Assembly: GCA_020429915.1 (NCBI GenBank)
Contig: JAGQKV010000031.1
Location: 2,656 to 66,655, forward strand
Origin: Candidatus Omnitrophota bacterium
GTDB lineage: Bacteria; Omnitrophota; Gorgyraeia; Zapsychrales; Zapsychraceae
DNA: 64,000 bases
Reading direction: 5' to 3'
The notes under the pieces are model-generated. The model searched no databases, had not been told where the DNA came from, and was given only the letters and a program-made list of their open reading frames with translations. This document shows positions 2,813 to 29,176 of the stretch, piece by piece (position 1 is the stretch's first letter; each line of letters opens with the position of its first letter). The position numbers and the translations under genes are program-made.

Positions 2813-2817
2813 CGGAT

Positions 2818-5801: not shown

Positions 5802-5830
5802 TTGACAGGGGGGTGCAATGTGGTTAAAAT
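5802..5830 (+). promoter_or_regulatory. sigma70-type promoter of the dcw/mra operon: TTGACA-17 nt-TAAAAT
   Basis: The -35 TTGACA is at 5802-5807, followed by a 17-nt spacer and the -10 TAAAAT at 5825-5830. It lies 50 nt upstream of mraZ, which is the canonical Pmra position. Confidence 0.6.
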
Positions 5831-5840
5831 GGAGTCCATA

Positions 5841-5865
5841 GTGGATTGATGTGGAGCGAAGTGGA
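5841..5865 (+). promoter_or_regulatory. MraZ-box operator: three GTGGA direct repeats at exact 10-bp periodicity
   Basis: GTGGA occurs at 5841, 5851 and 5861 (GTGGAttgatGTGGAgcgaaGTGGA), between the -10 and the mraZ start. This matches the known MraZ autoregulatory DNA-repeat architecture. Confidence 0.6.
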
Positions 5866-5879
5866 TTTGACAATTTCCT

Positions 5880-6317
5880 ATGTTTTACGGCGAGTACATC
5901 CATAATCTTGACACCAAGGGGCGGCTGATTATGCCCGCCCGTTTTCGAGACACCTGCCGCGAATACGGAGTTGAGCGGTTTTTCCTCACGCGGGGGATGG
6001 ATCACTGCATTTTTATGTTCTCTGAAGACGAATGGCGCTCCCAGGAGCAGAAGTTCAAAAATATGTCGTTCACCCGCAAAGAAGCGCGCAGCTTCAACCG
6101 GATGTTTTTCGCCGGCGCGGTGGACGTTGTCCCTGATAAACAGGGGCGTTTCATCATACCGGCCTACCTGAAGGAATATGCGAGCATCGAACGCGAGACC
6201 GTACTCATCGGCGTCTCCAACCGTATCGAGATTTGGGATAGCAAGACTTGGCGGGAATATTACGCCGAATCGAACAAATCGTTCGAAGAGATTTCTGAAA
6301 ATATGTTGGATCTGTAG
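5880..6317 (+). CDS. mraZ: transcriptional regulator MraZ
   Basis: The product MFYGEYIHNLDTKGRLIMPARFRD... has two MraZ/SpoVT-AbrB repeats and is 145 aa. It is the first gene of the dcw cluster. Confidence 0.9.
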   Translation: MFYGEYIHNLDTKGRLIMPARFRDTCREYGVERFFLTRGMDHCIFMFSEDEWRSQEQKFKNMSFTRKEARSFNRMFFAGAVDVVPDKQGRFIIPAYLKEYASIERETVLIGVSNRIEIWDSKTWREYYAESNKSFEEISENMLDL

Positions 6318-6366
6318 CTCTGGTTGACAATTTAAAACCTCAACCCCCACCACGAGGGAGCTAGCC

Positions 6367-6630
6367 ATGGAGCCGTTCGATGCCAATGCCGTTGTTTTCC
6401 ACCATCTTATAGACCTGCCCAACAGCGACTGTGTCTTTTGTTCAACCGTGGAGACCTCGACCGGTCATTCGCGATTGTTTCTTATTTTTCGTGAGCGACA
6501 GCGGATATATCTTCGCAACGGAATCAGAGATACTTGGGACGAGCTCCGGGATGCCGCGCAATACGCGTGTATCAGGGAGCGTTTTAACCAGGCGATCGAG
6601 GAGAAAAATGTCCCCTGCTTTTCAGCGTAA
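6367..6630 (+). CDS. hypothetical small protein (87 aa) inserted between mraZ and rsmH
   Basis: The ORF has a GAGGGA RBS 6 nt upstream and fills an otherwise unexplained 334-bp gap in a tightly packed operon. I recognise no homology. Confidence 0.25.
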   Translation: MEPFDANAVVFHHLIDLPNSDCVFCSTVETSTGHSRLFLIFRERQRIYLRNGIRDTWDELRDAAQYACIRERFNQAIEEKNVPCFSA

Positions 6631-6651
6631 GAGCGAGGGGGAGAACAGGCA

Positions 6652-7593
6652 ATGATAAAACCGGTCATGACGAGCGACAATACCGATATTCCCGATCCGG
6701 ACGCACCTGCGCATCAGTCGGTGCTGATGAACGAAGTCCTGCAATATATGGACCCGCAACCCGAAGAAGTTTTTGTTGACGGTACATTGGGAATGGGAGG
6801 GCATGCGCAGGCGATTCTTCACCGACTCGGTCCCAAGGGCCTGTTGATCGGTCTGGACCGTGATCTGCATTCTCTGGAGCAGGCCCAGAAAAATTTGGAG
6901 GAATTTACGCACCAGTGCCGTCTGATTCACCAGGATTTCCGTGATATCGACCAGGCGTTGGCGGATTTGAATATCGACGCGGTCGACGGTATTTTGCTCG
7001 ATTTGGGGATATCCAGCTATCAGCTCGATAATCCGGAGCGCGGCTTCAGCTTGCGCAACAGCGGACCGCTGGACATGCGGATGGATCAGAACGGCGCGAT
7101 TTCCGCTTATGACTTGGTGAATTCATTGACGGAGCGGGAGATCGCGGCCATTCTCAAGGATTTCGGCGAAGAACGGTGGGCCGGAAGGATCGCGCGACAG
7201 ATTGTGTCGGAGCGTTCAAAGCAGCCGATTGAATACACCGACGACCTGACGCGGATCATACTCAAGGCGGTTCCCGGTAAGGGCAAACCTCCCCGCATTC
7301 ACCCCGCTACACGCACATTTCAGGCCCTGCGGATCGCGGTCAACCGCGAACTGGAAACGCTGGAGACCGTGATCGACAAATCGATCACGCTCTTGAAACC
7401 CGGCGGGCGCATGGGGATCATATCCTTTCATTCTCTGGAAGACCGGATTGTGAAAAATAAATTTAAGCTTTTTGAAAAGGCCAACTTGGCCCGGTGCCTG
7501 GTTAAGAAGCCGGTCCGTCCCAGTGAAGCGGAGACGGAAGACAACCCACGGGCGCGCAGCGCCCGGTTTCGCATTATCAAGAGAGTCATATGA
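6652..7593 (+). CDS. rsmH: 16S rRNA (cytosine1402-N4)-methyltransferase RsmH (MraW)
   Basis: The SAM-binding motif ...HQSVLMNEVLQYM...VFVDGTLGMGGHAQAIL... is present. Its position after mraZ fits. Confidence 0.9.
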   Translation: MIKPVMTSDNTDIPDPDAPAHQSVLMNEVLQYMDPQPEEVFVDGTLGMGGHAQAILHRLGPKGLLIGLDRDLHSLEQAQKNLEEFTHQCRLIHQDFRDIDQALADLNIDAVDGILLDLGISSYQLDNPERGFSLRNSGPLDMRMDQNGAISAYDLVNSLTEREIAAILKDFGEERWAGRIARQIVSERSKQPIEYTDDLTRIILKAVPGKGKPPRIHPATRTFQALRIAVNRELETLETVIDKSITLLKPGGRMGIISFHSLEDRIVKNKFKLFEKANLARCLVKKPVRPSEAETEDNPRARSARFRIIKRVI

Positions 7594-7970
7594 GATTGTC
7601 CACATTTTTGAAAACCATTGGAGCGGTGACTGTTTTGGCGCTCTCATATGTCCACATGCAAATGCAAATCTTTGATTTGGCTTATCTGGGCAAGGATCAG
7701 GAACGGACCATTACCCGCCTGGACCAACAAAAGCAGTTTTTGACCTACAGTATCCTGAGCATCAAGTCGGCTCATAACTTGGGGCACGAAATGCTGAGAG
7801 AAGACAGCGGCTTGCAGTTTGCCAATCCCGACAGCATCGTCCTCATTTCCTCCAGAGAACCGAACGATGACCTGCAACCCGGTAAAACGCAGCTTTCCGC
7901 CGTTAAAAAGAATCCATTCTCAACGATCTTTTCTTTTGCCACCCGCGCCGAAGCTCGAAATTTTGAATGA
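7590..7970 (+). CDS. ftsL: cell division protein FtsL-like (single TM plus coiled coil)
   Basis: The 126-aa product has an N-terminal TM helix (TIGAVTVLALSYV) and then a coiled-coil-like segment. It lies between rsmH and ftsI and overlaps the rsmH stop. Confidence 0.55.
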   Translation: MRLSTFLKTIGAVTVLALSYVHMQMQIFDLAYLGKDQERTITRLDQQKQFLTYSILSIKSAHNLGHEMLREDSGLQFANPDSIVLISSREPNDDLQPGKTQLSAVKKNPFSTIFSFATRAEARNFE

Positions 7971-8002
7971 TCGGGCCTGGGTGATCGTGTAATATAGAAG
8001 CC

Positions 8003-9706
8003 GTGCAGATAAGACGCCATGACCTAAGATTCGTCTCGGTATTCCTGTTTCTTATCGCTTGCTTCGGCGTCTTTGTCGTCAAGCTGATACTCATTCAGGT
8101 ATTCAACTCCGAGCATCTCGCCCAACTGGCCCGCAAACAGCACAATCAAGCGATCGAGTTGGAGCCGGTCCGGGGGACTATTTTCGACCGGAATCTCAGA
8201 CCGCTGGCCCTGAATATCGCGGTGCACTCGCTGTATGCCAATCCACGCATTATGTCGCCCGAAGACAAGCAACGAGCGCTGGAGATCCTTCCCGGGCTCA
8301 TCGGCGTCGAGCCGGAGATGCTGCGGGAACGGCTTGGCCGCGACAAATTCTTTGTCTGGATTCAGCGCAAGCTTCCGGTGGATCTCACCGAGGCCGTGCG
8401 GGCCAAGAAGCTGCGCGGGTTGTCGTTTATCGATGAGAGCAAGCGATTCTATCCCAACGGATCGTTGGCTGCGCATGTGATCGGATTTGCCGACATCGAC
8501 AACAAGGGCCTGGAAGGGGTGGAGCTGGTCTACGACCGCTACCTGAAGGGCAAGGCGGGCCAAGGGATCTTTCTGCGCGACGCTAAACAACGTAACTTGT
8601 TGCTGTCGAAGAACTTCATATCACCCCAGGACGGTATGCATGTGGTCCTGACGATCGACGAGACGATTCAGTATATCGCCGAACGTGCACTGGATGAGGC
8701 CTTTGTGAAAAACAAGGCCAAATCGGCGACAATCATCGTCGCCGATCCCCGGTCCGGCGAGATTCTCGCCCTGGCCAACCGGCCGACATATGACCTGGAG
8801 CATGTCGCTCAGAGCAGCGTGGAAAGCCGGACCAACCGGGCCGTCAGCTATGTCTATGAGCCGGGATCCGTCTTCAAAGTGGTCACGGCCTCGGCAGCGC
8901 TGGAAGAGAAGATGTTTGTTGAAACGGACGAGATATTTTGTGAAAATGGAAAGTACCGCGTGGCCAACCATACACTTCGGGACCACCATCCCCACGGGAC
9001 GCTCACGTTTCGTGAGGTGTTCGAAAAGTCCAGTAATATCGGTGTCTGCAAGATCGCCCAGCAGTTGGGTCCGGAAATAGTCTATAACTACGGCCGGAGG
9101 TTCCGCTTCGGCATGCCGACTCAAATTGAATTGAAGGGTGAGGTCGACGGCTGGCTGAAGGACCCTTCACAATGGTCCAAGACCACGATCTCGGCGATTC
9201 CCATGGGTCACGAGGTGACCGTGACCCCGCTGCAATTATTGGGCGCATTATCGGCCATTGCGAACGACGGCTATTACATGCGCCTGCATATCGTTAAGCA
9301 CATACGGGATAAGTATAATCAGGTGATCAAATCGACACGGCCGGAGATATTGGACCGGGTGATCAGTGAGCAGACCGCTCATCGCGTACGTGACATCATG
9401 GTCGGCGTCGTTGAAAACGGCACGGCCAAGCGCGCGCAAATTGAAGGAGTGAAAGTGGCGGGAAAAACAGGTACGGCGCAGAAGGTCATCGACGGCCAAT
9501 ATTCTCATAGTCAGTTTTATGCCTCATTCATGGCGTTTGCTCCCGCAGATGATCCAAAGCTGGCCTGCGTCGTGGTCTTTGACGAACCCCGGCCGAGCTA
9601 TTTCGGTGGAACCGTGGCTGCGCCCGTCGCCAAGGAAGTGCTCGAAAACAGTCTGAAATATCTGAATTCTACGGAAGTCGCGCAAGCGGAAGGATCGGTG
9701 CATTGA
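8003..9706 (+). CDS. ftsI: peptidoglycan D,D-transpeptidase FtsI (penicillin-binding protein, class B)
   Basis: There is an N-terminal TM and a PBP dimerisation domain. The transpeptidase motifs SVFK (active-site Ser), SSN and KTGT are present. The protein is 567 aa. Confidence 0.85.
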   Translation: MQIRRHDLRFVSVFLFLIACFGVFVVKLILIQVFNSEHLAQLARKQHNQAIELEPVRGTIFDRNLRPLALNIAVHSLYANPRIMSPEDKQRALEILPGLIGVEPEMLRERLGRDKFFVWIQRKLPVDLTEAVRAKKLRGLSFIDESKRFYPNGSLAAHVIGFADIDNKGLEGVELVYDRYLKGKAGQGIFLRDAKQRNLLLSKNFISPQDGMHVVLTIDETIQYIAERALDEAFVKNKAKSATIIVADPRSGEILALANRPTYDLEHVAQSSVESRTNRAVSYVYEPGSVFKVVTASAALEEKMFVETDEIFCENGKYRVANHTLRDHHPHGTLTFREVFEKSSNIGVCKIAQQLGPEIVYNYGRRFRFGMPTQIELKGEVDGWLKDPSQWSKTTISAIPMGHEVTVTPLQLLGALSAIANDGYYMRLHIVKHIRDKYNQVIKSTRPEILDRVISEQTAHRVRDIMVGVVENGTAKRAQIEGVKVAGKTGTAQKVIDGQYSHSQFYASFMAFAPADDPKLACVVVFDEPRPSYFGGTVAAPVAKEVLENSLKYLNSTEVAQAEGSVH

Positions 9707-11157
9707 AGCTCAAGGATCTCATCGACGGGATATATGCCGGTCCCTTGGCCCTGCATTATCATGATCTGGAAGTCGCGGGAATCAGCAGCGATTCACGCAA
9801 GGTCGATCCCAACGAGATCTTTGTCGCCTTGCGCGGTGAGCAGTTCGACGGTCGTCAGTTTATCCCCTCAGCGATCGCCCATGGGGCCCGGATCATTGTG
9901 ACGGACGACGCCCCGGCAGGGGTGCCGGGAGAAGATGCGTGCGTGCTGAACGTGGCGGATACGAATTCGTTCCTGCGCCAGATCGCGGAAAGGTTTTACG
10001 GCAATCCCTCGCGCCGCGTCAATGTTGTCGGCATAACCGGCACCAACGGAAAAACCACCATCTCCTATCTTGTTGAATCCATTCTCCATCGCGCCCAGGA
10101 AGAATGCGGCGTCGTGGGCACCGTCAATTACCGGGTCGGGCGCCAAGTTTATCCGGCCGTCAATACGACTCCCGGCTTCCTGGAAAATCAGCGCCTGCTG
10201 TATGAATTGGCCGAACAAAACATCCGCTACTGTGTTATGGAAGTTTCGTCACACGCCCTGGTGCAGAGCCGGGTCGACAACATTCAATTCAAAGCCGCTG
10301 TTTTTACCAACCTCACGCAGGATCATCTGGACTACCACGGGACCATGGAAAATTACTTTGCCGCAAAGTCACGACTATTTGAACTGGTCAGGGAAGACGG
10401 AGTCTGTTGTGTCAATGTGGACAACGACTACGGACGGCGTTTGTATCAGCAGTTGAGCCAGCATGTGATGACCTTCGGACTGAATCCGCGCGCGGAGATT
10501 CACGCGACCGACATCCGGTATTCGGTCAGAGGGACCGAGTTCCTCCTGGTGACACCGCATGGGGAGGTGCGGATCGTCACGCCGCTTTTGGGAGAATTCA
10601 ATGTGTCCAATATCCTGGCGGCGGTATGTGTCGGTTTTCATGAAGGGATTTGTCTCGAAGCGATCCATCAAGGCATCGAGGATTTGCAATGCGTGCCGGG
10701 ACGTCTGGAAAGTGTGGAATCCGACCGCGACTATGAGATCCTGATTGATTATGCCCACACGCCGGATGCCTTGAGGAATGTCTTGGCCGCCCTGCGCCGG
10801 GTCAGTCCGCGGCGGATCATACTCGTGTTCGGTTGCGGCGGTGATCGAGATCGCGGAAAGCGGCCGCTGATGGGGCGGATTGCCGCCGCGGGAGCCGACA
10901 AGATCATCGTCACCTCCGACAATCCCCGGACGGAAGACCCCGCACAAATCATAGCGGAGGTCGAATCCGGCATGAAAGGCGGTGACTATGAAGTGGTGGT
11001 CGACCGCGAACAGGCCATTGCCCGTGGTCTGAATATTGCCGGGGAAGGGGATATCGTTTTGATTGCCGGTAAGGGGCATGAGGATTATCAGGTGCTTGGT
11101 GATCGGCGCATCGATTTCAACGAGCGGTCCGTGGTGCGAAAGGTTTTGCGATGTTAA
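9703..11157 (+). CDS. murE: UDP-N-acetylmuramoyl-L-alanyl-D-glutamate--2,6-diaminopimelate ligase
   Basis: It has the Mur ligase P-loop GITGTNGKTT and a DNPR-type motif (TSDNPRTEDP) consistent with meso-DAP-adding MurE. Confidence 0.88.
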   Translation: MKLKDLIDGIYAGPLALHYHDLEVAGISSDSRKVDPNEIFVALRGEQFDGRQFIPSAIAHGARIIVTDDAPAGVPGEDACVLNVADTNSFLRQIAERFYGNPSRRVNVVGITGTNGKTTISYLVESILHRAQEECGVVGTVNYRVGRQVYPAVNTTPGFLENQRLLYELAEQNIRYCVMEVSSHALVQSRVDNIQFKAAVFTNLTQDHLDYHGTMENYFAAKSRLFELVREDGVCCVNVDNDYGRRLYQQLSQHVMTFGLNPRAEIHATDIRYSVRGTEFLLVTPHGEVRIVTPLLGEFNVSNILAAVCVGFHEGICLEAIHQGIEDLQCVPGRLESVESDRDYEILIDYAHTPDALRNVLAALRRVSPRRIILVFGCGGDRDRGKRPLMGRIAAAGADKIIVTSDNPRTEDPAQIIAEVESGMKGGDYEVVVDREQAIARGLNIAGEGDIVLIAGKGHEDYQVLGDRRIDFNERSVVRKVLRC

Positions 11158-12515
11158 ACCTGGCGGATATTCGCCGGGTGTGCCGCGGCCGTATCATGAG
11201 CGGAGAGGCGCGCGGCACCGTGGATTCGGTATCCATAGATTCACGCACGGTACAGCCCGGCGGACTCTTCGTCGCTATAAAGGGCGATAGGTTCGACGGG
11301 CATCGCTACATTGCGCAGGCGGCCGCCAAAGGAGCGCGTGCGGTCATTGTGTCGCGGCGAGTTGCCGCAAAGGGAATGACCGTGATCCAAGTCAGCGACA
11401 CGGTCCGCGCATTGGGACGGATAGCCTGCCTGCATCGACAGCACTTTTCCGGACCGGTCATCGCGATCACCGGGAGCGCCGGAAAAACCAGTTGCCGTCG
11501 AGTGATCGCGGCCGTACTGGGGGCTTCCCATCGGGTCCTCCAGAGTGCCCGGTCGGAAAATAACTGGATCGGCGTGCCGTTGACGCTTTTGAAGTTGCGT
11601 CCCGAACATGATATCGCCGTTGTGGAAGCCGGGACAAATCAAACCGGCGATATGGCGTGGCTGGCCTCGATTATTCAACCGGACGTCACGGTCTTTACCA
11701 ATATCGGTGATTCCCATTTGGCCGGTCTGAAGGACCGCGGGGGAGTTTACCGGGAGAAAATCCATTTGGCGCAGGGACGGCCCGGTCCGGCAGCTGTCCT
11801 GTTTAATGCGGATGACGAGTATCTCGCGCGGATTCCGCAGGAAGGATGGGCGACGGCTTTAAAAGGTTTTTCGGTCGACTCGCCATCCGATTGCCGCGCC
11901 CGGGACGTTCGTGTCACGGCCGCCGGCGGGGTCCGCTTCCGGGTCGGGGGGAGCGACTATCATATGCGGCTGCCCGGCCGGCAGCATGTGTATAATGCGC
12001 TGGCCGCGATCCTGTGCGCCCGCCGCTTCCGTGTCCCGCCGGTAAACGTGCGTACGGCCCTGGCCCGGATAACCCCGGCGGACAACCGCGGAAACCTGGT
12101 CAAGACCCGCGGGGGTGTCTGGATTTTGGACGACACCTATAACGCCAATCCGCTGTCGTTTCAACGAGCGCTTGAGTTTTTGGCGGAACTTCCGGGGGCG
12201 CGTCGCCGCATTGTGGTGTGCGGGGACATGCTTGAGCTGGGGGCGATGTCAAGACGGTTACATCAGGATCTGGGTCGGTGCATGGCACAGGCCGGTGTTG
12301 CGGTGTTGTTGGGATTTGGCGCTCAATCCCGTTACGTCGTCGACGCTTACCGCCAGGCCGCGCCGGCGGGTATCGCGACGGGTTACGGATCACTGTCGGC
12401 CTTGCACCGGGGCCTCGGACGGATCGTTCGTCGCGGTGACGTGGTCCTGGTCAAGGGATCACGTTCGATGCGCATGGAAAAAACAGTGGAATATTTGAAA
12501 GGAAAGTTGAGTTAG
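11151..12515 (+). CDS. murF: UDP-N-acetylmuramoyl-tripeptide--D-alanyl-D-alanine ligase
   Basis: The Mur ligase family P-loop AITGSAGKTS is present. Its position after murE fits. Confidence 0.85.
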   Translation: MLNLADIRRVCRGRIMSGEARGTVDSVSIDSRTVQPGGLFVAIKGDRFDGHRYIAQAAAKGARAVIVSRRVAAKGMTVIQVSDTVRALGRIACLHRQHFSGPVIAITGSAGKTSCRRVIAAVLGASHRVLQSARSENNWIGVPLTLLKLRPEHDIAVVEAGTNQTGDMAWLASIIQPDVTVFTNIGDSHLAGLKDRGGVYREKIHLAQGRPGPAAVLFNADDEYLARIPQEGWATALKGFSVDSPSDCRARDVRVTAAGGVRFRVGGSDYHMRLPGRQHVYNALAAILCARRFRVPPVNVRTALARITPADNRGNLVKTRGGVWILDDTYNANPLSFQRALEFLAELPGARRRIVVCGDMLELGAMSRRLHQDLGRCMAQAGVAVLLGFGAQSRYVVDAYRQAAPAGIATGYGSLSALHRGLGRIVRRGDVVLVKGSRSMRMEKTVEYLKGKLS

Positions 12516-12524
12516 GCTACCGAT

Positions 12525-13610
12525 ATGTTTTATTTTTTGTCGCAATTCCGGGAGGCCCATTTCGGGTTCAATATCTTCCGTTACATCACATTCCGTACGG
12601 GCATGGCGGCGTTTACCACTTTTGTGCTGTGCGTCACCGTCGGGCCGTTGATCATCCGTAAATTGCGGAAGATGAAGGTCGGAGAAGTGGCCAAGCGGGA
12701 CGATTGCCCGGATTTGGATCAGTTTCAGAATGCCAAAGAGGGGACGCCGACGATGGGAGGGCTGTTTGTGGTCGGCAGCATCGTGATTTCGGTCCTGCTG
12801 TGGGGAGATTTGGGGAATCATTTTGTCCTGCTAACCCTTTTCACCTGCGTGTACCTCGCTGTCTTGGGTTGGGTGGATGACTACTATAAACTGAAAGGCA
12901 TCGGCCGGCGCGGACTGACCAAGCGGACTAAACTGCTCTGGGAGATTTTGTTGGGTTGTTTTATCGGTTCCTATGTCTATTTCAATCCGACGACATCGAC
13001 GCAGTTGGATATGCCATTTTTAAAGGACGCGATCATAAGTTTGGGATGGCTGTACATTCCCTTTGTGGCCATGATCGTCATCGGAACCTCCAATGCCGTC
13101 AATTTAACGGACGGTCTTGACGGTCTGGCCATCGGATGTGTCTTGGTAGTCAGCATCACCCTGGCGATCCTCAGTTATATCACCGGGCATATCAAGTTCA
13201 GTTCCTATTTATTCATCCCCTTTATCGCGGATGCGGGCGAGCTGACGGTGGTGTGTTCCGCCATCGTCGGTGCGAGTCTCGGGTTTCTGTGGTTCAATTG
13301 TCATCCGGCAAGCGTCTTTATGGGGGATACCGGTTCGTTGTCGCTTGGTGGGACGCTTGGGGTTTTGGCGGTCCTGATTAAAAAGGAGCTGCTGTTGGTC
13401 ATCATCGGGGGGGTCTTTGTGATCGAAGCGGTTTCGGTGATTATGCAAATTATTTCATTCCGGGTGTGGGGAAAACGGATATTTAAGATGTCGCCGTTTC
13501 ATCATCATTTGCAGCTCTCCGGTTGGCCGGAGTCGAAAATCATCATCCGGTTCTGGATCCTGGCCGTGATTATGGCGCTGCTGGCGTTAACAACATTGAA
13601 GATTCGTTAG
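12525..13610 (+). CDS. mraY: phospho-N-acetylmuramoyl-pentapeptide transferase
   Basis: It is polytopic and carries the motifs NAVNLTDGLDGLA and HHH (SPFHHHLQL). Confidence 0.92.
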   Translation: MFYFLSQFREAHFGFNIFRYITFRTGMAAFTTFVLCVTVGPLIIRKLRKMKVGEVAKRDDCPDLDQFQNAKEGTPTMGGLFVVGSIVISVLLWGDLGNHFVLLTLFTCVYLAVLGWVDDYYKLKGIGRRGLTKRTKLLWEILLGCFIGSYVYFNPTTSTQLDMPFLKDAIISLGWLYIPFVAMIVIGTSNAVNLTDGLDGLAIGCVLVVSITLAILSYITGHIKFSSYLFIPFIADAGELTVVCSAIVGASLGFLWFNCHPASVFMGDTGSLSLGGTLGVLAVLIKKELLLVIIGGVFVIEAVSVIMQIISFRVWGKRIFKMSPFHHHLQLSGWPESKIIIRFWILAVIMALLALTTLKIR

Positions 13611-14915
13611 ATGCTGGATTTGACTGATAAAACAGTGACGGTTGTCGGTGCCGGGCGTTCCGGGCTGGCCTTGGTCCGATTGGTGCGCCGGATTAAGGGA
13701 GAGCCGCGTTTAACGGACAGGCGCCCTGCCGAAGATATCCCGGACCATGATCTGAGTGCTTTGCATGAGCAAGGGATCGTCACAGAGTTTGGCGGGCACA
13801 CCCGGGATTTTCTGGACGGATCCCATATGCTGGTCCTCAGTCCGGGTGTCCCGTTCACATCGGAGATCGTCCAATGGGCCCGCGAGATGTCCGTGCCTGT
13901 GATGGGAGAGATTGAATTTGCCTATCAGTTTTGTCAGGCGCCGGTCATTGCCGTGACCGGCAGCAACGGCAAAACAACGGTGGTCAATCTGATTACCCGT
14001 GTACTTCAGGAAGCCGGCATATCCGCCCGTCTCTGCGGCAATGTCGGGTATCCCTTTTCGGATTATTGCCGTGACGGTCAGGATTATGGTTACTACGTCC
14101 TGGAACTCAGCTCGTTTCAGCTGGAGTCGCTGCTTTCGCCGGGTGATCCGTTAGTGCGTTCACAGGCGGCGCGCGGTTTTCGACCGAAGATCGGAGTCAT
14201 CCTGAATTTCAGCGAGAACCATCTGGACCGTCACGCCGATCTTGATGAGTATTTTGCCGCGAAATGGCGCTTGTTTCAGAATCAGCGGGAAGAGGATTAC
14301 GCGGTCCTGAACGAAGGCTGCGCCCGCAGCCGGGAGCGGGCCGGTGAGCTGAAGGCGCGCACTCGTTTTTTCAGCGCCGGCCAGGACGATCCGGAACGGG
14401 CCGGCAATCCCAATCATGCGGTTGTGCGGCTGATCGCCAGTATTCTGAATATCCATCCCGGGGTCATCGACAGTGTCCTGGAGGCGTTTGAAGGGGTGGA
14501 ACACCGCATGGAGTTGGTCCGTTCTTTGCACGGGGTCACGTACATTAACGATTCCAAGTCAACCACTGCCGAATCCGGACGCTGGGCGCTCAGTCAGTTG
14601 CCGGGGCCGGTGATCATGATTTGCGGCGGACGGGACAAAAATATCGAATTCAGTCCGTTGCGGGAACTTGTGCGGCTGCGGGTCAAGTCGATGTATGTTA
14701 TCGGTGAGGCAAGTGATAAATTGCGGGACACGTTCGCGCAAGTGGTGCCGGTTTCCGTCTGTCCCGATTTGCGGCAGGCCGTTAATCGCGCCCGGGATGA
14801 GGCGGCTGCCGGGGACAGTGTGCTGTTAAGTCCGATGTGCGCCAGCTTCGACATGTTTGCCAACTTTGAGCAACGGGGCGCCATCTACAAACAGATCGTT
14901 ATGGAGTTGAGCTGA
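13611..14915 (+). CDS. murD: UDP-N-acetylmuramoylalanine--D-glutamate ligase
   Basis: There is an N-terminal Rossmann fold (VVGAGRSG) and the Mur ligase P-loop GSNGKTT. Confidence 0.88.
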   Translation: MLDLTDKTVTVVGAGRSGLALVRLVRRIKGEPRLTDRRPAEDIPDHDLSALHEQGIVTEFGGHTRDFLDGSHMLVLSPGVPFTSEIVQWAREMSVPVMGEIEFAYQFCQAPVIAVTGSNGKTTVVNLITRVLQEAGISARLCGNVGYPFSDYCRDGQDYGYYVLELSSFQLESLLSPGDPLVRSQAARGFRPKIGVILNFSENHLDRHADLDEYFAAKWRLFQNQREEDYAVLNEGCARSRERAGELKARTRFFSAGQDDPERAGNPNHAVVRLIASILNIHPGVIDSVLEAFEGVEHRMELVRSLHGVTYINDSKSTTAESGRWALSQLPGPVIMICGGRDKNIEFSPLRELVRLRVKSMYVIGEASDKLRDTFAQVVPVSVCPDLRQAVNRARDEAAAGDSVLLSPMCASFDMFANFEQRGAIYKQIVMELS

Positions 14916-14916
14916 G

Positions 14917-16014
14917 ATGACAGATATGCGGCCGTTACGAATTTCCATTGCCATGATCGTCGCGTTGTTGCTGTGTCTGGGCCTGATCATGATATATTCC
15001 TCCAGCGGGGTTTATGCCTCGGAAAACTTGGGTGACCGGACCTATTTCTTGAAGAGACAGCTGATTTTCCTGGGCATCGGGTCTGTCTTTTCTTTTCTCA
15101 TTATGTCTATTGATTACCGGATCTTGCAGCAATACTCCAAGTGGCTGTTGATCGGGGCCTTTGTCATGCTGCTGCTGGTGCTGATTCCGGGCATCGGAAC
15201 CTCGAGTTTCGGTGCGCGCCGTTGGTTCAAGCTCGGTCCGATCAGTTTTCAGCCTTCCGAGTTTACCAAATTGGCCATCATGATTTATGCCGCCGACTTT
15301 CTGGCCCGAAAACAGGGAAAAATAACCAATTTTCTCGAGGGATTTTTACCGTTATTGATTATAATGGGGAGTGTATGTTTGCTGATTATTAAGCAGCCCG
15401 ACCTGGGCAGCTCGGTGCTGATTGCGAGCATCATCCTTACCCTGCTGTACGTGGCCGGGACGCGGTTGATTTATATCGGCGGCCTGGTACTGTCTGCGGT
15501 GCCGTTGCTGGTTTATCTGGTCATCAGTGAACCGTACCGGATGCGGCGGATCATCGCCTTTCTTGATCCCTGGCAGGACAGCCAGGGGGCGGGATTCCAG
15601 CTGTCCCAGTCCCAGATCGCTTTGGGCTCCGGGGGGATCTTCGGAGTCGGGCTTGGCCAAAGCATGCAGAAGTTGTTTTATCTGCCCGCGGCCCATACGG
15701 ATTTTATCCTGTCGATAATCGGTGAGGAGCTTGGCCTCATCGGAACGCTCATGACCGTGTTGCTGTTTGCGGCGTTTATCTGGCAGGGCGCCCGGATTAT
15801 CAAGCGGACTTCTAATCCGTTCGGATATTATCTGGCGACCGGGATTGTGGCGCTGATCGGCATGCAGGCCGTGGTGAATATCGGTGTGAGCATCGGGGCA
15901 TTTCCGACCAAGGGACTCCCGTTGCCGTTTATCAGCTACGGTGGTTCCGCGCTGGTGTTCAATATGCTGAGTGTGGGCCTGTTGTTGAATATATCCCGAA
16001 TCGAAGATATATGA
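14917..16014 (+). CDS. ftsW: peptidoglycan glycosyltransferase FtsW (SEDS family)
   Basis: It is a 10-TM FtsW/RodA/SpoVE family protein, placed in the dcw cluster between murD and murG. Confidence 0.88.
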   Translation: MTDMRPLRISIAMIVALLLCLGLIMIYSSSGVYASENLGDRTYFLKRQLIFLGIGSVFSFLIMSIDYRILQQYSKWLLIGAFVMLLLVLIPGIGTSSFGARRWFKLGPISFQPSEFTKLAIMIYAADFLARKQGKITNFLEGFLPLLIIMGSVCLLIIKQPDLGSSVLIASIILTLLYVAGTRLIYIGGLVLSAVPLLVYLVISEPYRMRRIIAFLDPWQDSQGAGFQLSQSQIALGSGGIFGVGLGQSMQKLFYLPAAHTDFILSIIGEELGLIGTLMTVLLFAAFIWQGARIIKRTSNPFGYYLATGIVALIGMQAVVNIGVSIGAFPTKGLPLPFISYGGSALVFNMLSVGLLLNISRIEDI

Positions 16015-17084
16015 GAGTTATGTTGGCGGCCGGCGGTACGGCGGGGCATCTGGGGCCGGCTGTGGAAGTCGCCCGTTGGTTGCGGCGTGAAGGGCACACT
16101 GTCACGTTTGTCGGCGTATTGGGAGACAACGCAGAGCGGCTGCGGGATGAAGGATTTGAGGCGCGGGAGTTGGCTGCGCGCGGACTGCAGGGGGAAGGTG
16201 TCCGGCATGATCTGTCCGCAGTTCTTTCGCTAATTAAAGCGGCTTGGCAGGCACGGGTGATTATTAAATCGGTCCGGCCTCAGGTCATCGCGGGTTTCGG
16301 CGGATACGCCGCGTTTCCGGTCGTCGGCGCTGCCATTATGTGCGGCGTGCCCGCGGTCATTCATGAACAGAATGTGGTCCCCGGGCGGGCCAACCGGTTG
16401 CTCGGCCGGTTTGTCCGCAAGATTGCGGTGAGTTTCCGCGAGTCACGCGCGCATTGGTCCGCCGGCAAGATTGTCGTCACCGGTTGCCCGGTCAGTCCGG
16501 GAACGCCGGAACACGGGCGGGATGACTTTTATCGGAAGGTAAACTTCTCGTCCGAACGCAAAACGGTCCTGGTTTTCGGCGGCAGCCAGGGCAGCCAGCG
16601 GATTAACAACCTTTTTCCGGCTTGTGTCGGGCCGTTGACGGCCAGGTTTCCGGTCCAGATTTTGCATGTCAGCGGCCGCGGAAGATTGGCGGAGCTGGAG
16701 GCGGCCTATGCGAACGTTCAGGCCCCGTACCGGCTCTTTGAGTACTACCGGCCGATGGCTACTTTATATGCGTCGGCAGACGTCATTGTGTGCCGGGCCG
16801 GAGCGGCCACCGTCAATGAGCTGGTGGTATTCGGAAAGCCTGCCTGCTTGGTGCCTTACCCGCACGCTGGCGGCCACCAGGAATTTAACGCGCGGGTGCT
16901 GGTTGAAGCCGGCGTGGCTCAGATGATCAAGGACGAGGAGTTGACCCCCGAGAATTTATCGGGCCGGATCGGTGTACTCCTGGATGATCCGCCGCAGCAG
17001 AAAAATTTTACGCGTTTGCAGGACGAAATGAACGTCAATAATGCCACCGACACATTGGCCAAGGAAATCTTAAACACCGCATGA
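16011..17084 (+). CDS. murG: UDP-N-acetylglucosamine--N-acetylmuramyl-(pentapeptide) pyrophosphoryl-undecaprenol N-acetylglucosamine transferase
   Basis: It has the GT28 N-terminal motif (AGGTAGH) and the C-terminal donor-binding domain. Confidence 0.88.
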   Translation: MRVMLAAGGTAGHLGPAVEVARWLRREGHTVTFVGVLGDNAERLRDEGFEARELAARGLQGEGVRHDLSAVLSLIKAAWQARVIIKSVRPQVIAGFGGYAAFPVVGAAIMCGVPAVIHEQNVVPGRANRLLGRFVRKIAVSFRESRAHWSAGKIVVTGCPVSPGTPEHGRDDFYRKVNFSSERKTVLVFGGSQGSQRINNLFPACVGPLTARFPVQILHVSGRGRLAELEAAYANVQAPYRLFEYYRPMATLYASADVIVCRAGAATVNELVVFGKPACLVPYPHAGGHQEFNARVLVEAGVAQMIKDEELTPENLSGRIGVLLDDPPQQKNFTRLQDEMNVNNATDTLAKEILNTA

Positions 17085-17872
17085 CGCGATTACTCACAGC
17101 TTTGCTTACCGGTTTCCTGATTTCAGCGGTCACGGTCCAGCCCGCATTTGCCAAAGAGTACGAATGGCAGGAGGAGCGCGGTCGGCACACGATTGTGCTC
17201 TACCGTTCGGCTCCCCGTGATTTTGTGCAAAGCGTTGAAGAATCGGCCGAAGATTATTATTCCCGTATTACCCGCACCTTTGGATTTCCCCGGCGCGGTG
17301 TCTGGTCGTATGATGAACGGGTCAAGATCTATATTTATGACAACGAGGATGAATATGTGACCGTCGGCCAACAAAAGCGCTGGTCCCACGGCGTGGCCTC
17401 TCCCTATGAAAAGATTATCCGGACCTATCCGTCGGCCTCGGGTTTTTTCGACACGACGCTGCCTCACGAACTGGCCCATATCGTCTTTCGTGAATATGTA
17501 GGATACCGCACATTTATTCCGACATGGTTTGAGGAAGGGGTGGCCATGTATGCGGAACGCGCCAAGCGCTTCGGTGCCCACAACGCGGTCCGGGAGGCCC
17601 GGCGGCGCGGACAGTTTCGCACCCTCCAAGAGCTGACATTAACCGGGATGCGGGGGATCAACGGGCGGCAGGAGGCGGCGTTGTTCTACATGCATGCCGC
17701 CAGTATCGTGAAATTCATGATCGATGAGCACGGCAAGCAAAAATTCGTACGCTTCTGTCGCAAATTAAAAGAAGGTAAACCATTTGATTGGGCCTTGGAT
17801 GAGTCCTATCCCAGATTCAAGAATACCGACCGTCTCAATGAGGCATGGGTCAAATTTCTCGACAATGACTAA
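17081..17872 (+). CDS. secreted zincin-like protein (HExxH; peptidase-MA-like fold) inserted in the dcw cluster
   Basis: There is a signal peptide (AVTVQPAFA-KE). The motif LPHELAHIVFREY....WFEEGVAMYAE fits HExxH plus a downstream Glu, as in peptidase_MA-type domains. It overlaps murG and murC at both ends. Confidence 0.5.
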   Translation: MTRLLTALLTGFLISAVTVQPAFAKEYEWQEERGRHTIVLYRSAPRDFVQSVEESAEDYYSRITRTFGFPRRGVWSYDERVKIYIYDNEDEYVTVGQQKRWSHGVASPYEKIIRTYPSASGFFDTTLPHELAHIVFREYVGYRTFIPTWFEEGVAMYAERAKRFGAHNAVREARRRGQFRTLQELTLTGMRGINGRQEAALFYMHAASIVKFMIDEHGKQKFVRFCRKLKEGKPFDWALDESYPRFKNTDRLNEAWVKFLDND

Positions 17873-19259
17873 ACATTATCACTTAATCGGAATCGGCGGG
17901 ATCGGGATGAGCACCATCGCATCGTTGTTATTAGCCAAAGGGCAGCGCGTGAGCGGTTCGGATGTGAGGGAGAATGCCTCGGTCAGCAGGCTGATCGCTC
18001 AGGGCGCTTCAATCACCGTCGGCCACAATTCGGAAAATATCGGAGATGCCGATATCGTGGTGTATTCTTCGGCGATCACCGACGCCAACTGCGAACTTGC
18101 CGCCGCCCATCGCCGGGGTATCCCCGTCCTGCGGCGTGCGCAGGTCCTGGCGCAACTCATGGGGGAGCACACCGGCATCACGGTGGCCGGCGCCCACGGC
18201 AAGACGACCACAACTTCGATGATCGGCCAAATGATGAGCGCCGCCGGGCTGGAACCCACCACGGCCATCGGCGGGATCGTTATGGGCAGCGGCTTAAACG
18301 CCGCGCTCGGGAAAGGCAAGTACTTTGTGGCTGAGGTCGACGAAAGTGACGGATCGTTTCTGTATTTCTCTCCGGATTATTCCATCATCAGTAACATCGA
18401 TCTGGAGCACCTGGATTACTACCAGAACTGGAAGCATATCGCGGACACTTACCAGGAATTCTTTCAACGGACATCGGCGGGTGGAGTGATCATCGCCTAC
18501 GGCGATGATCACCGTTTGTGCGATCTTATTCGGCAAAGCGGCCGGGAGTTCAAAACCTTCGGATTTTCATCCGATGATGATGTGTTTGCGACCAATATCC
18601 GGATGCAGGAATTTCATACCTCCTTCGATTGCGTGATCCGGGGAGAAGTGGCCGGTCAGGTGGAAATTCCCATTCCCGGCCGGCACAATATCGCCAACGC
18701 CCTGGCATGTCTTTGCCTCGGGAGTCAGCTCGGCATCGATTTCAATGTCATGGCCGAAAGCCTGTCCGGGTTCGGCGGCGTCCAGCGCCGTTTCGAAACC
18801 TTGGGTATCGTCGAGGACATTATGGTCGTCGACGACTACGCGCATCATCCCACCGAAATCTTGGCGACTTTGCAGACGGCGCATGAACAGCACGTCGGGC
18901 GTGTTATCGGGATATTTCAACCGCACCGCTATTCCCGCTTGAAGGCATTGTGGAAGGAGTTTGTCGAAAGCCTTAAGGACGTGGATTATCTGATTGTTAC
19001 CGATGTGTATGCGGCGAGTGAGAACGTGATTCCGGGAGTGGAGAGCGCGGCGTTCGTCAATGATTTGAAGAAAATTAGCGATCATCCGGTCATCTACATC
19101 AAGCAGGAAAAGATCGTCAACCATCTGTTCAAAACCGCCATGCCCGGCGATTTGGTCATCACCCTGGGCGCGGGCGATGTCAATCAGGTGGGCTACGAAT
19201 TCGTACGGAAAAAGAAAATGAAACTGGAGAAGCAAATGGAGAAGATCAGTGAGTCATAA
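17865..19259 (+). CDS. murC: UDP-N-acetylmuramate--L-alanine ligase
   Basis: The sequence MTKHYHLIGIGGIGMSTIA... plus the P-loop GAHGKTTTTS is present. I chose the start at 17865 rather than the ORF-track 17784. Confidence 0.9.
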   Translation: MTKHYHLIGIGGIGMSTIASLLLAKGQRVSGSDVRENASVSRLIAQGASITVGHNSENIGDADIVVYSSAITDANCELAAAHRRGIPVLRRAQVLAQLMGEHTGITVAGAHGKTTTTSMIGQMMSAAGLEPTTAIGGIVMGSGLNAALGKGKYFVAEVDESDGSFLYFSPDYSIISNIDLEHLDYYQNWKHIADTYQEFFQRTSAGGVIIAYGDDHRLCDLIRQSGREFKTFGFSSDDDVFATNIRMQEFHTSFDCVIRGEVAGQVEIPIPGRHNIANALACLCLGSQLGIDFNVMAESLSGFGGVQRRFETLGIVEDIMVVDDYAHHPTEILATLQTAHEQHVGRVIGIFQPHRYSRLKALWKEFVESLKDVDYLIVTDVYAASENVIPGVESAAFVNDLKKISDHPVIYIKQEKIVNHLFKTAMPGDLVITLGAGDVNQVGYEFVRKKKMKLEKQMEKISES

Positions 19260-20226
19260 CAAATATAAATTCGGTAGGGTCGGCGTGCTCATGGGGGGAT
19301 GCTCCTCGGAGCGGGAAATCTCCCTGCAATCGGGGCAGGCGGTGTATGACGCCCTGCACGGCATGGGGCTGGATGTCCAGGCCATCGATCTGCGGGATGA
19401 TCAGCCGGACCGCGTACACGATCTGTTGTTGGAAAAAAAGGTAGAAGGCGTGTTCATTGCCCTGCACGGGAGATTCGGTGAGGACGGCCAAATTCAAAAA
19501 CTGTGCGAGCAGCTGGGGTTGCCGTATACCGGCTCCGACGCCGTGGCCAGCCGTCGCGCCTACAACAAGATTATCACTCAGAGCACCTTGTTGGCGCATA
19601 ATGTTATGGTGCCTGATTTTGTGACGATGGAAAGTCAGGACCCGGACCGCATTCCGGCGACGGTGGCGAGTCTCGGGAGCTATCCCTTTGTCGTCAAGCC
19701 GGCCTGCGAAGGTTCGAGTATCGGCGTCACCGTCGTCCGGGACGAGACCGAATTGCGGCGGGCCGTAGAGGAGGCCTGGGGGTACGGGCCCTATGTGCTC
19801 ATCGAGCGCTTTGTGCCCGGCAGAGAGCTGACCGTCGGGATCCTCGGTGATGTCCCGCTGGATGCGGTGGAGGTGGTGACGCAGCGCGCATTTTACGACT
19901 TCACCGCCAAGTACCAGGAGGGTCAGACCGAGTATAAGGTACCGGCGGACCTGCCGCTCGAAATCAGACATGTCCTGCAGGAGACGGCGTTTAAAGTTCA
20001 TACGGTGATGGGCTGCCGCGACATATCGCGGGTGGATTTTCGTCTCGATCAGGACTTGAAACCCTTCGTATTGGAAATCAATACGATCCCCGGTTTCACA
20101 CCGTACAGTCTCCTGCCTAAAGCCGCCGCGCACGCGCAGATATCATTCGATAAACTTTGTCTAACATTACTAAATCTTGCTTATGCCCAGAAAAAAGAAA
20201 AAAAACTTATTACCGCTGATCATTAA
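19249..20226 (+). CDS. ddl: D-alanine--D-alanine ligase
   Basis: It has the ATP-grasp fold, with GVLMGGCSSEREISLQSG at the N-terminus and EINTIPG at the C-terminus. Confidence 0.9.
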   Translation: MSHNKYKFGRVGVLMGGCSSEREISLQSGQAVYDALHGMGLDVQAIDLRDDQPDRVHDLLLEKKVEGVFIALHGRFGEDGQIQKLCEQLGLPYTGSDAVASRRAYNKIITQSTLLAHNVMVPDFVTMESQDPDRIPATVASLGSYPFVVKPACEGSSIGVTVVRDETELRRAVEEAWGYGPYVLIERFVPGRELTVGILGDVPLDAVEVVTQRAFYDFTAKYQEGQTEYKVPADLPLEIRHVLQETAFKVHTVMGCRDISRVDFRLDQDLKPFVLEINTIPGFTPYSLLPKAAAHAQISFDKLCLTLLNLAYAQKKEKKLITADH

Positions 20227-20947
20227 ATCATTACTGATTCTGCTTATCATCGCAGCGGCCGGAGGAATCGGGCTATTGTGTTATGTCGAGGGCGGGGAAT
20301 TGATCCGGACTTCACGCCGCTTCACGGTGAAGAAAATCGTTATCGATCCCACCCTGCGATTCATTCAGCATCGCGACCTGCAGGTGATTCAGGGGCAGAG
20401 CATATTCGACGTGGATTTGCAGGATATGGAAAGCCGTTTGATGCTGAAGTATCCGGAAATCTCCGAACTGCGGGTGGAGCGGAAATTTCCGGATGAAATT
20501 CATCTGGTGGCCAAGAAGCGGATGCAGCTGGCCCAGGTGCCGTTCCGGCAGAGTTTTCTGGTAGTGGATGACGAAGGGGTGGTGCTGGCCAAAAAGGAAA
20601 AACGCGACAAGGAGTTGCCCGCCATTGAAGGATTTAAGATTCCGCGGGGGCCGGTGGAACTCGGGTCCCGGATCCGTCACCAGCGGCTGCGCACGGCGCT
20701 CGAAATCATCACCTCCTTTAACGAAAACGCGGCGCTGTCTTCCTACCGAATCGATAACCTCGATATCGACCAGTCGTCCAAAATCATGGTCTATCTCGAC
20801 CGGGATATCAAGGCCATCCTCGACGATCAGCGCGTCGATCGCAAAATTAATGTCCTGGGTTTTGTTTTGACCCAGGGCAACCTCGATCTGCGGGAAGTCA
20901 ATTACATCGACCTCAGATTCAAAGACCCTATTATCGGAAAGAAGTAA
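20177..20947 (+). CDS. ftsQ: cell division protein FtsQ (POTRA domain)
   Basis: There is an N-terminal TM (LLPLIIKSLLILLIIAAAGGIGLL) and then a POTRA/FtsQ fold. It lies between ddl and ftsA. The start is uncertain because it overlaps ddl by about 50 nt. Confidence 0.7.
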   Translation: MLMPRKKKKNLLPLIIKSLLILLIIAAAGGIGLLCYVEGGELIRTSRRFTVKKIVIDPTLRFIQHRDLQVIQGQSIFDVDLQDMESRLMLKYPEISELRVERKFPDEIHLVAKKRMQLAQVPFRQSFLVVDDEGVVLAKKEKRDKELPAIEGFKIPRGPVELGSRIRHQRLRTALEIITSFNENAALSSYRIDNLDIDQSSKIMVYLDRDIKAILDDQRVDRKINVLGFVLTQGNLDLREVNYIDLRFKDPIIGKK

Positions 20948-22182
20948 TGCTGAACCGAGTCCTGAAAGACAAACTCTATTGCGGACTGGATATCGGGGCC
21001 AACAAGCTGAAGGTCGGCCTCGTGCAGTTAAAGGACGGAGAGCCGGAAATCCTCGGAGCGTATGAACACCCGGTCCATGGATTCAAAGATTCCTGTGTCC
21101 ACGATCTCAATGAGTTTTCCGAATGCATTCACCAGGTGATGACCGAGCTGGCCGCCAAGACGGGCGTCCATGTGAAGGACATTGAGGTCGGTCTCGATGG
21201 CAATCTGGTCAAGATTCGCAAGACCTCGGCCGCGATTCCGCTGGTGGACCGGGGGAACAAGGTGATTGCCGCAGGCGATGTGCGCAAGTTAAACAAGCAG
21301 GCGCGTCTGCTGGGCGTCAAGATGGAAGAAGAGGTCCTGCACGAGATGCCGCAGACCTATCTCATTGACGACATCAATGCGGCGGCCAATCCGGTGGGGT
21401 TGTACGGTCGCAAGCTGGCGGTGCAATCCCTGATGGTGGTGTCAGACGTCGACAAGGCCAAGAATATCATCAAATCCATCAACCATGCCGGTTATGAAGT
21501 CCGGCATATCTTCTTCGGCAGCTATGCCTGCTCGCATTTGCTGCTCACTCCCGACCAGCGGCGTAACGGATGCGTCCTCATTGACATAGGGGCCACCGTG
21601 ACCAGCATCCTCGTTTTTCATGAAGGGATCATCAAGTATGTGCACGCCATTCCGATCGGGGGGCAGCAACTCACCAAAGATATCGCGTTGCGCCTTAAAC
21701 TCAATTTCGAATTGGCCGAGGAAATCAAACGTTCCTATGCCACCGCTGTCTCCTCCCAGATCCAGGAAGAGGAGGTGTTGGTCAAGCGGGACAATGCGTA
21801 TATACCGATCAAGCACGGAGAAATATATCAGGCGATCTCGGACCGGCTTGACAGTTTGATCGGACAGATCGATGATTCCATCAGGGCGTCCAACCTGTAC
21901 GAGTATGTGGGTTCGGGGATCAGGATTACGGGCGGGGGAGCCTTATTGCCGGGACTGATCGAGCGGATTGAAGAGAAGACCAGGCTGGAAGTGTCACTCG
22001 CCCAGATTCAGCAGTTGACGCCGCGCAATGTTTCCAACGCGGCCGTATTTGCCACGGCGGTAAGTTGCGCGCACCGCGGCTGGCAGTTCCAGGACCAGGG
22101 ACAGATGACAGCGCAACAACATGTGGATTGGGGGCGTCGCCTGATCAACAAGGTGAAAGAGTTGTATTTTGAGTATTTCTAG
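20947..22182 (+). CDS. ftsA: cell division protein FtsA
   Basis: It has the actin-like ATPase fold (LDIGANKLKVGLV...). It is the last gene of the cluster, and no ftsZ follows. Confidence 0.9.
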   Translation: MLNRVLKDKLYCGLDIGANKLKVGLVQLKDGEPEILGAYEHPVHGFKDSCVHDLNEFSECIHQVMTELAAKTGVHVKDIEVGLDGNLVKIRKTSAAIPLVDRGNKVIAAGDVRKLNKQARLLGVKMEEEVLHEMPQTYLIDDINAAANPVGLYGRKLAVQSLMVVSDVDKAKNIIKSINHAGYEVRHIFFGSYACSHLLLTPDQRRNGCVLIDIGATVTSILVFHEGIIKYVHAIPIGGQQLTKDIALRLKLNFELAEEIKRSYATAVSSQIQEEEVLVKRDNAYIPIKHGEIYQAISDRLDSLIGQIDDSIRASNLYEYVGSGIRITGGGALLPGLIERIEEKTRLEVSLAQIQQLTPRNVSNAAVFATAVSCAHRGWQFQDQGQMTAQQHVDWGRRLINKVKELYFEYF

Positions 22183-22535
22183 TCTTTGCGGTATTGGGTG
22201 CTGCGCAGGCGGTTGATATTGTAGCTGACGTCTTTGATCAGGTTGGCCAGCCGCTGCAAGGCATTGAGGATATAGAGCATCCAGAAGGAATTAAGCAAGA
22301 GCAGCACGACCAGGATGCTGGAATTGACGTTCTGTGTGGTGAGGATGGCCTCCACAAAGGTCTTATCGGTTTGATGGAGGTTGATGTCGATGACGTTCAG
22401 CAGATTGCGGAACCAGAAGGCAAAGATGACCAGCAGCACCACCTGAAAGAAAGTGAAGTAGAAATGCCTCATCAGCCAGCGGGCGGCGAGGTGATCCCAG
22501 TATTTCAGCTTTTGCAGCAGGTCCTTAAATGGCAT
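22179..22535 (-). CDS. hypothetical small membrane protein, convergent to ftsA
   Basis: The 118-aa product has 2-3 hydrophobic helices (FYFTFFQVVLLVIFAFWF; ILVVLLLLNSFWMLYIL). It overlaps the ftsA stop by 4 nt on the opposite strand. I recognise no homology. Confidence 0.4.
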   Translation of the reverse strand: MPFKDLLQKLKYWDHLAARWLMRHFYFTFFQVVLLVIFAFWFRNLLNVIDINLHQTDKTFVEAILTTQNVNSSILVVLLLLNSFWMLYILNALQRLANLIKDVSYNINRLRSTQYRKD

Positions 22536-23305: not shown

Positions 23306-23360
23306 ACCCGGCCTTCGAGGAAATTTTTTAGTTCTCGATCTAGCCGTCCGTCCGAACATC

Positions 23361-29169: not shown

Positions 29170-29176
29170 CGCCTTC

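Follow-up and report, generated by a model that had tools for sequence, protein, structure and literature searches.

A 64-kb stretch of Candidatus Omnitrophota DNA (64,000 nucleotides of contig JAGQKV010000031.1, assembly GCA_020429915.1, positions 2,656 to 66,655; hereafter the window) carries a compact division and cell wall (dcw) operon, and ftsZ is absent both from this cluster and from the window as a whole. Between murG and murC the operon holds a gene, here called pepMA, for a 263-residue protein that is predicted to be an exported zinc peptidase. The explanation that we consider probable on balance is that this is the dcw operon of an FtsZ-less bacterium and that PepMA takes part in septal wall metabolism or cell division. 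Candidatus Omnitrophota, the source of the window, belongs to the Planctomycetota–Verrucomicrobiota–Chlamydiota (PVC) superphylum. Of 285 PepMA homologues found, the closest, at 96% identity, belongs to a Candidatus Omnitrophica metagenome-assembled genome, and every homologue among the 285 with a named organism is from Omnitrophica or Omnitrophota.

An intact dcw operon without ftsZ

The cluster spans positions 5880-22535 in the order mraZ–ORF87–rsmH–ftsL-like–ftsI–murE–murF–mraY–murD–ftsW–murG–pepMA–murC–ddl–ftsQ–ftsA, all on the + strand, followed by a convergent gene for a protein with two transmembrane segments (ORF118; ORF, open reading frame). An earlier note on this stretch had proposed this gene order, and the ORF map and family scans recovered every gene of it on the + strand at or near the place proposed. 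Families were called with NCBIfam models typed as equivalog or subfamily at their curated cut-offs; ftsI and ftsQ were assigned by Pfam domains. The features are as follows, with scores set against cut-offs.

5880-6317, + strand: mraZ (Pfam MraZ, E = 1.6e-40; TIGR00242, 145.5 vs 98.35)
6367-6630, + strand: ORF87, a small soluble protein, clade-restricted, with conserved homologues
6652-7593, + strand: rsmH (mraW) (TIGR00006, 339.3 vs 154.3)
7590-7970, + strand: ftsL-like, 126 residues, named from its position and an N-terminal hydrophobic, transmembrane helix only
8003-9706 (longest-ORF limits), + strand: ftsI, class B penicillin-binding protein (Pfam Transpeptidase, E = 4.6e-80, and PBP_dimer)
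9703-11157, + strand: murE, meso-diaminopimelate-adding type (NF001126, 578.7 vs 373)
11151-12515, + strand: murF (TIGR01143, 367.6 vs 288.6)
12525-13610, + strand: mraY (TIGR00445, 379.4 vs 192)
13611-14915, + strand: murD (TIGR01087, 371.3 vs 212)
14917-16014, + strand: ftsW (TIGR02614, 424.9 vs 337.5)
16011-17084, + strand: murG (TIGR01133, 272.2 vs 250.25)
17081-17872, + strand: pepMA, 263 residues (Pfam PF13485 Peptidase_MA_2, 56.4 bits vs 32.4)
17865-19259, + strand: murC, start read from the sequence (TIGR01082, 491.8 vs 335.1)
19249-20226, + strand: ddl, overlapping murC (NF002378, 337.2 vs 243)
20177-20947 (longest-ORF start; the real start may be later), + strand: ftsQ (Pfam FtsQ_DivIB_C, 30.1 vs 21; POTRA_1, 26.4 vs 23)
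20947-22182, + strand: ftsA (TIGR01174, 227.2 vs 175.85; SHS2_FTSA, the SHS2 1C domain, E = 2.1e-11)
22179-22535, − strand: ORF118, 118 residues, two transmembrane segments, convergent on ftsA with overlapping stop codons

The true start of murC is the ATG at 17865 (MTKHYHLIGIGGIGMS) and not the longest-ORF TTG at 17784. The FtsL-like ORF, which has no match in Pfam or NCBIfam, is kept at the same position in most related loci. FtsA ends in an amphipathic segment (WGRRLINKVKELYFEYF) of the kind that serves as a membrane-targeting helix, and the solved structures nearest to it are themselves FtsA structures.

The earlier note had found no ftsZ in the cluster, and this was borne out by signature scan, tblastn and family scans. 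No ORF in any frame of the window contains the tubulin signature. Searches by tblastn with the FtsZ proteins of E. coli and B. subtilis, which match each other at 1e-99, returned nothing better than E = 1.9 over the window and its related loci. This comparison set comprises 80 related genome loci and 80 metagenome loci, with 172 sequences and 2.1 Mb in total; the metagenome loci were obtained by a scan seeded with the subgroup of a 27%-identical PepMA relative found at the ftsW/murG junction. Family scans of the window, with Pfam on most ORFs of at least 110 residues and with NCBIfam on murE, murF, mraY, murD and ftsW, gave no match to the tubulin/FtsZ family. Finally, ftsZ is absent from all 72 related loci in which 1.2 kb or more of sequence extends beyond a near-complete ftsA; in loci that lack the convergent ORF, sugar-modification or radical-SAM-like genes come after ftsA.

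A cluster of this form might instead be an ordinary dcw operon whose ftsZ has been relocated and is encoded elsewhere on the chromosome. FtsA, which usually tethers FtsZ to the membrane, is still encoded and looks canonical; according to PVC reviews, FtsZ is kept in Candidatus Omnitrophica; and a 2025 PVC profiling study groups Omnitrophota with phyla that have 'highly conserved' dcw genes. It also weighs against an FtsZ-less reading that the search for FtsZ in this genome covered 64 kb. The statement in the reviews, however, goes back to 'Omnitrophica bacterium OLB16' alone, and strain OLB16 (NCBI taxid 1617433) is now placed under Candidatus Hinthialibacterota in NCBI taxonomy. Moreover, Seymour et al. 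2023 (Supplementary Information) report Omnitrophota species representatives to be without ftsZ, bar one case that is 89% identical to an archaeal protein and is taken as a contaminant, and Pende et al. 2021 found FtsZ and SepF absent, and FtsA present, in four Omnitrophica genomes. With no FtsZ in 2.1 Mb of related sequence either, we regard relocation as very improbable. From the literature alone, loss of FtsZ across the phylum is highly probable, and the suggestion in the earlier note that the DNA might come from a PVC member without FtsZ was correct, the lack being one at phylum level.

The loss of ftsZ in Omnitrophota is thus already documented, and the PVC division literature has not fully absorbed it: reviews and the 2025 study still count the phylum as FtsZ-bearing or dcw-conserved, on the basis of a genome that was later assigned to another phylum. 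That true Omnitrophota lack FtsZ is on record only in one supplement and one figure legend. We also considered reading a loss of FtsZ binding from subdomain 2B of FtsA and dropped this approach, as the residues concerned are poorly conserved even in FtsZ-bearing bacteria.

murB lies outside the cluster

The window gives no tblastn match to E. coli MurB. E. coli likewise keeps murB away from its cluster. Among relatives of the window, 7 of the 80 genome loci, and many of the more divergent metagenome loci, retain murB at the place between murC and ddl, and a 2026 preprint (bioRxiv 10.64898/2026.06.07.730766) reports murB in 176 of 176 complete Omnitrophota genomes. Because the gene is so widely reported and is still found at its murC/ddl position in some relatives, we conclude that it has moved out of the cluster in the lineage of the window and has not been lost, an ordinary event. 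The earlier note was therefore right that murB is missing from the cluster and wrong to count this as unusual: it had allowed that its case would fall if ftsZ and murB turned up elsewhere in the genome, and for murB, one half of that pair, this is what the 176 complete genomes reveal at the level of the phylum.

PepMA is a predicted exported gluzincin

PepMA begins with a Sec-type signal peptide, judged by inspection, at residues 1-24 (MTRLLTALLTGFLISAVTVQPAFA, with predicted cleavage before KEYEW), with an AxA site and no lipobox cysteine. The N-terminus is hydrophobic in nearly all of the aligned homologues and contains a conserved cysteine in none. In an alignment of 89 homologues, H129, E130, H133, E152 and Y203 are invariant. 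The zinc site has the form HExxH-x18-E, which is the gluzincin spacing: E152 lies 18 residues past H133 within a WFEEG motif, and the invariant tyrosine follows about 70 residues downstream of the site. The alignment also displays a WSxG motif and a GFFD motif.

The confident AlphaFold2 model (predicted local distance difference test score 89.7) has a thermolysin-like catalytic fold of two subdomains. In the PDB, Foldseek matches it best to M9 collagenase peptidase domains (E = 6e-6, TM-score 0.56-0.64) and next to M1 aminopeptidases and leukotriene A4 (LTA4) hydrolase, to E 1e-2; no PDB sequence was matched by a profile built from the PepMA alignment. Three family assignments were tried and rejected. 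With Pfam PF01752 Peptidase_M9 the score is 16.5 bits where the cut-off is 26, so that the likeness to M9 is structural only; M1 fails for lack of the GxMEN motif (alignments A1 and A2) and of a match to Pfam Peptidase_M1; and an NCBIfam flagellinolysin match at 28.9 bits, against a cut-off of 205, was not used. Two distant paralogues of PepMA match Pfam Peptidase_M1 weakly.

Accordingly, PepMA belongs to an uncharacterised family and is predicted to be exported, to consist of one domain and to have an intact gluzincin active site, and model and alignment together make it very likely that it is an active exported enzyme. The earlier note had described an exported HExxH protein and had named loss of the zincin residues as grounds for abandoning that description; all of the catalytic residues are kept.

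It is scarcely credible that PepMA is instead a catalytically dead scaffold, a pseudo-enzyme that binds a periplasmic partner. E. coli BepA (family M48) is a periplasmic HExxH quality-control protease, and small proteins of this kind can also act as chaperones, which lends that idea some general plausibility. The zinc ligands, the catalytic glutamate and the candidate transition-state tyrosine are, however, invariant across the 89 sequences and are kept as well in a divergent subgroup linked to dcw genes, and such strict conservation of the active site is as expected of an active enzyme.

Conserved coupling of pepMA to murG and murC

The start of pepMA overlaps the stop of murG by 4 bases (ATGA), and the murC ATG overlaps the pepMA stop by 8 bases (ATGACTAA). 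Each of the 80 genome loci has the order murG–pepMA–murC where its sequence reaches both neighbours. On either side of pepMA the median junction is −4 bases, with overlap at 62 of 77 junctions on the murG side and at 53 of 77 on the murC side. The coupling to both neighbours that the earlier note had pointed out is thus kept across the related Omnitrophota genomes sampled and is no peculiarity of this one. Since pepMA is so tightly coupled to murG and murC, its co-expression with peptidoglycan genes, also put forward in that note, is a sound inference. Internal promoters and terminators are no commoner within the cluster than in shuffled sequence, and we claim no sub-operons.

Beyond these loci, a PepMA-like gene adjoins murG or murC in 40 of the 80 metagenome loci, often with murB kept. 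The 27%-identical relative whose subgroup seeded the metagenome scan sits between ftsW and murG, an arrangement (ftsW–pep–murG) found in L093 and in several other contigs (among them L085 and L092). L094 (metagenome contig Ga0172381_10022420, positions 1151-3816), from a divergent lineage, has two copies, in the order ftsW–pep–murG–pep–murC–murB, and both have HELTH motifs and N-termini that resemble signal peptides. The association of this family with the lipid II section of the dcw operon is thus deep, and it arose at more than one junction.

Possible roles of PepMA

These properties suggest a course of events that we set out conditionally. PepMA would be made from the same mRNA as the enzymes of lipid II synthesis, in step with them, and once exported would be a soluble zinc endopeptidase, active in the periplasm. 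There it would work with the septal machinery of FtsQ, the FtsL-like protein, FtsW and FtsI, organised by membrane-bound FtsA with no FtsZ. On the reading that we prefer, it would cleave a peptide bond, either of meso-diaminopimelate-type peptidoglycan or of a divisome protein on its periplasmic side, and this cleavage would help septal wall remodelling or the separation of daughter cells. Peptidoglycan or divisome proteins in the periplasm are the most likely targets of PepMA. A role in the envelope or in division that is tied to the dcw genes is slightly favoured, and any particular substrate is doubtful at best. One candidate task can probably be set aside: the window encodes an S41 C-terminal processing protease with a PDZ domain, of Ctp/Prc type, at 48368-49702. 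In E. coli the enzyme of this type trims FtsI, and because the window has its own, FtsI trimming is probably not the role of PepMA.

The main competing explanation makes PepMA a generalist, a housekeeping or quality-control protease of the periplasm with no specific part in peptidoglycan metabolism or division, whose place in the dcw operon is a frozen accident that gives constitutive expression. The wider family supports it. A full HMMER search of 1.84 billion representatives returned 95 at E <= 1e-30, 464 at E <= 1e-10 and 2539 at E <= 1e-3, so the family of proteins of about 260 residues is large and diverse. Distant paralogues, at 26-35% identity, stand in other envelope contexts: after type II secretion system (T2SS) E/F-type genes (L087:8001-8789 and L090:5001-5786, the latter also ahead of pseudopilin genes), after a MacB-type ABC exporter (P0237), fused to the C-terminus of the apolipoprotein N-acyltransferase Lnt (P0304; L086:2862-5243) and fused to a thioredoxin-like domain (P0270). 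Because paralogues adjoin these other machines, the family is not specific to peptidoglycan. Further points weigh against a septal role: a Pfam scan recognises no peptidoglycan-binding domain in PepMA; to our knowledge, the classical families of peptidoglycan peptidases include no HExxH gluzincins; we found no paper in the searchable literature on PF13485/Peptidase_MA_2 in a dcw context; and co-transcription of pepMA with its neighbours is something that we infer from gene overlaps and from internal terminators being no commoner than chance.

Three observations argue against a generalist protease, which we consider unlikely. First, the position of pepMA and its overlaps persist while PepMA identity falls to about 30-40% and that of FtsI to 40-50%. 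Second, another member of the family has been recruited independently at the ftsW–pep–murG position (L085, L093 and L094), which is hard to call an accident. Third, the paralogues are each tied to one machine, which suggests machine-specific roles; the relatives of PepMA would then form a family of proteases in the periplasm, every one associated with an envelope machine of its own.

The septal reading can be extended, tentatively. It is possible, if well short of an even chance, that Omnitrophota have an FtsA-centred, FtsZ-independent divisome in which PepMA, and possibly ORF118, are lineage-specific core parts; that PepMA performs the septal cleavage or divisome processing performed by amidases and their activators in model bacteria; and that the family consists of machine-dedicated proteases, including ones for type II secretion or pili and for lipoprotein maturation. 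An early survey of few genomes found no AmiA, NlpD or EnvC in Omnitrophica.

ORF87 and ORF118

The extra ORF that the earlier note had placed between mraZ and rsmH is a real gene restricted to a narrow clade. ORF87 has 14 homologues of 87-99 residues at 48-99% identity, and on the four related contigs fetched (L081-L084) the homologue lies between mraZ and rsmH in all four. H13, C22, C25 and C84 are invariant (alignment A3), and the protein may bind zinc. Its AlphaFold2 model, which is confident (score 87), is a beta-meander with a helix and has no significant fold match in the PDB.

ORF118 is conserved widely in the phylum: a homologue lies directly after ftsA, in convergent orientation, in 52 of the 65 genome loci that contain ftsA. 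Its 62 homologues, of which the named ones are all from Omnitrophica, contain no Pfam domain; they share the N-terminal motif WDN…W.MRHFY, with D14, W20, H24 and Y26 invariant (alignment A4). Matches of ORF118 itself to Pfam and NCBIfam models were weak and were rejected as spurious. The gene occupies the spot that ftsZ holds in other bacteria.

Upstream region

Two elements lie ahead of mraZ.

5802-5830, + strand: sigma-70-like promoter, TTGACA-17-TAAAAT, agreeing with the consensus at 11 of 12 positions, the best match of the scanned region (consensus match only)
5841-5864, + strand: three GTGG direct repeats with a 10-bp period, MraZ-operator-like

The triple GTGG pattern occurs once in the window against 0.01 expected, and the same repeat stands just 5′ of mraZ in the related contigs L081 and L083. 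We take it to resemble the MraZ operator known from E. coli.

Neighbouring genes

Beyond ORF118, a stand-alone response-regulator receiver is encoded at 22649-23017, a zinc-ribbon protein at 23190-23654 and a class-V aminotransferase at 23651-24793. In many related loci the receiver and aminotransferase genes are again found downstream of the dcw cluster. Further along are a T2SS-C-like protein and a secretin (52996-55198), with no PepMA paralogue beside them in the window, and two adjacent proteins of about 540 residues with FGE-sulfatase-like domains (55896-59151). Four ORFs at 27592-30247 and, on the − strand, 60160-63105 (525, 356, 373 and 281 residues) match no Pfam family. From 1 to 59151 nearly all genes are on the + strand and GC skew is positive throughout, consistent with a co-directional stretch on the leading strand; orientation flips past about 60 kb.

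Relation to earlier work

The FtsZ-less state of Omnitrophota and the relocated murB are known already or ordinary. In the searchable literature we found no description of a conserved peptidase inside the dcw operon, of the duplication of such a dcw peptidase in some lineages, of a convergent membrane protein after ftsA or of the clade-specific ORF87. The configuration as a whole, an intact and compact dcw operon that keeps FtsA and the whole peptidoglycan pathway but has no FtsZ, has been little noticed in Omnitrophota. PepMA and ORF118, whose functions are putative, offer concrete candidate parts of an FtsA-based, FtsZ-independent divisome in a phylum that is essentially uncultured. Should PepMA indeed act on peptidoglycan, an HExxH gluzincin would join the known families of cell-wall hydrolases.

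Comparison with known systems

The cluster resembles the canonical dcw cluster of E. coli type, or of the inferred ancestral order, in its 14 common genes, collinear on one strand with overlapping or abutting junctions, and in its upstream promoter and MraZ-box-like repeat, here a putative operator read from sequence. It differs in lacking murB and ftsZ, where the ancestral order has murC–murB–ddl and ftsA–ftsZ, and in adding a peptidase gene between murG and murC, a small gene between mraZ and rsmH and a convergent membrane-protein gene at the place of ftsZ.

Chlamydiota and Planctomycetota are, like Omnitrophota, members of the PVC superphylum that lack FtsZ according to published surveys. 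They have also lost FtsA (Pende et al. 2021), and their dcw clusters are described as fragmented, whereas the window keeps FtsA, FtsQ, FtsW and FtsI together with the complete peptidoglycan precursor pathway in one intact operon.

Among peptidases, the closest structural counterparts of PepMA are the peptidase domains of the M9 collagenases ColG, ColH, ColT and Vibrio VhaC (Foldseek E = 6e-6 to 5e-4, TM-score 0.5-0.64), which likewise have a zinc site of HExxH and a downstream glutamate. Identity to these is 12-17%, however, and PepMA, at one third of their size, has no activator, PKD or collagen-binding domains. With M1 aminopeptidases and LTA4 hydrolase PepMA has in common the HExxH-x18-E spacing, a downstream tyrosine of catalytic type and the fold, but it lacks the GxMEN exopeptidase motif and the N- and C-terminal domains of M1 enzymes. 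Finally, proteases of BepA type are, as is predicted for PepMA, soluble periplasmic zinc proteases tied to one envelope assembly machine; BepA belongs to a different peptidase family, with no detected homology to PepMA, and has a TPR domain that PepMA lacks.

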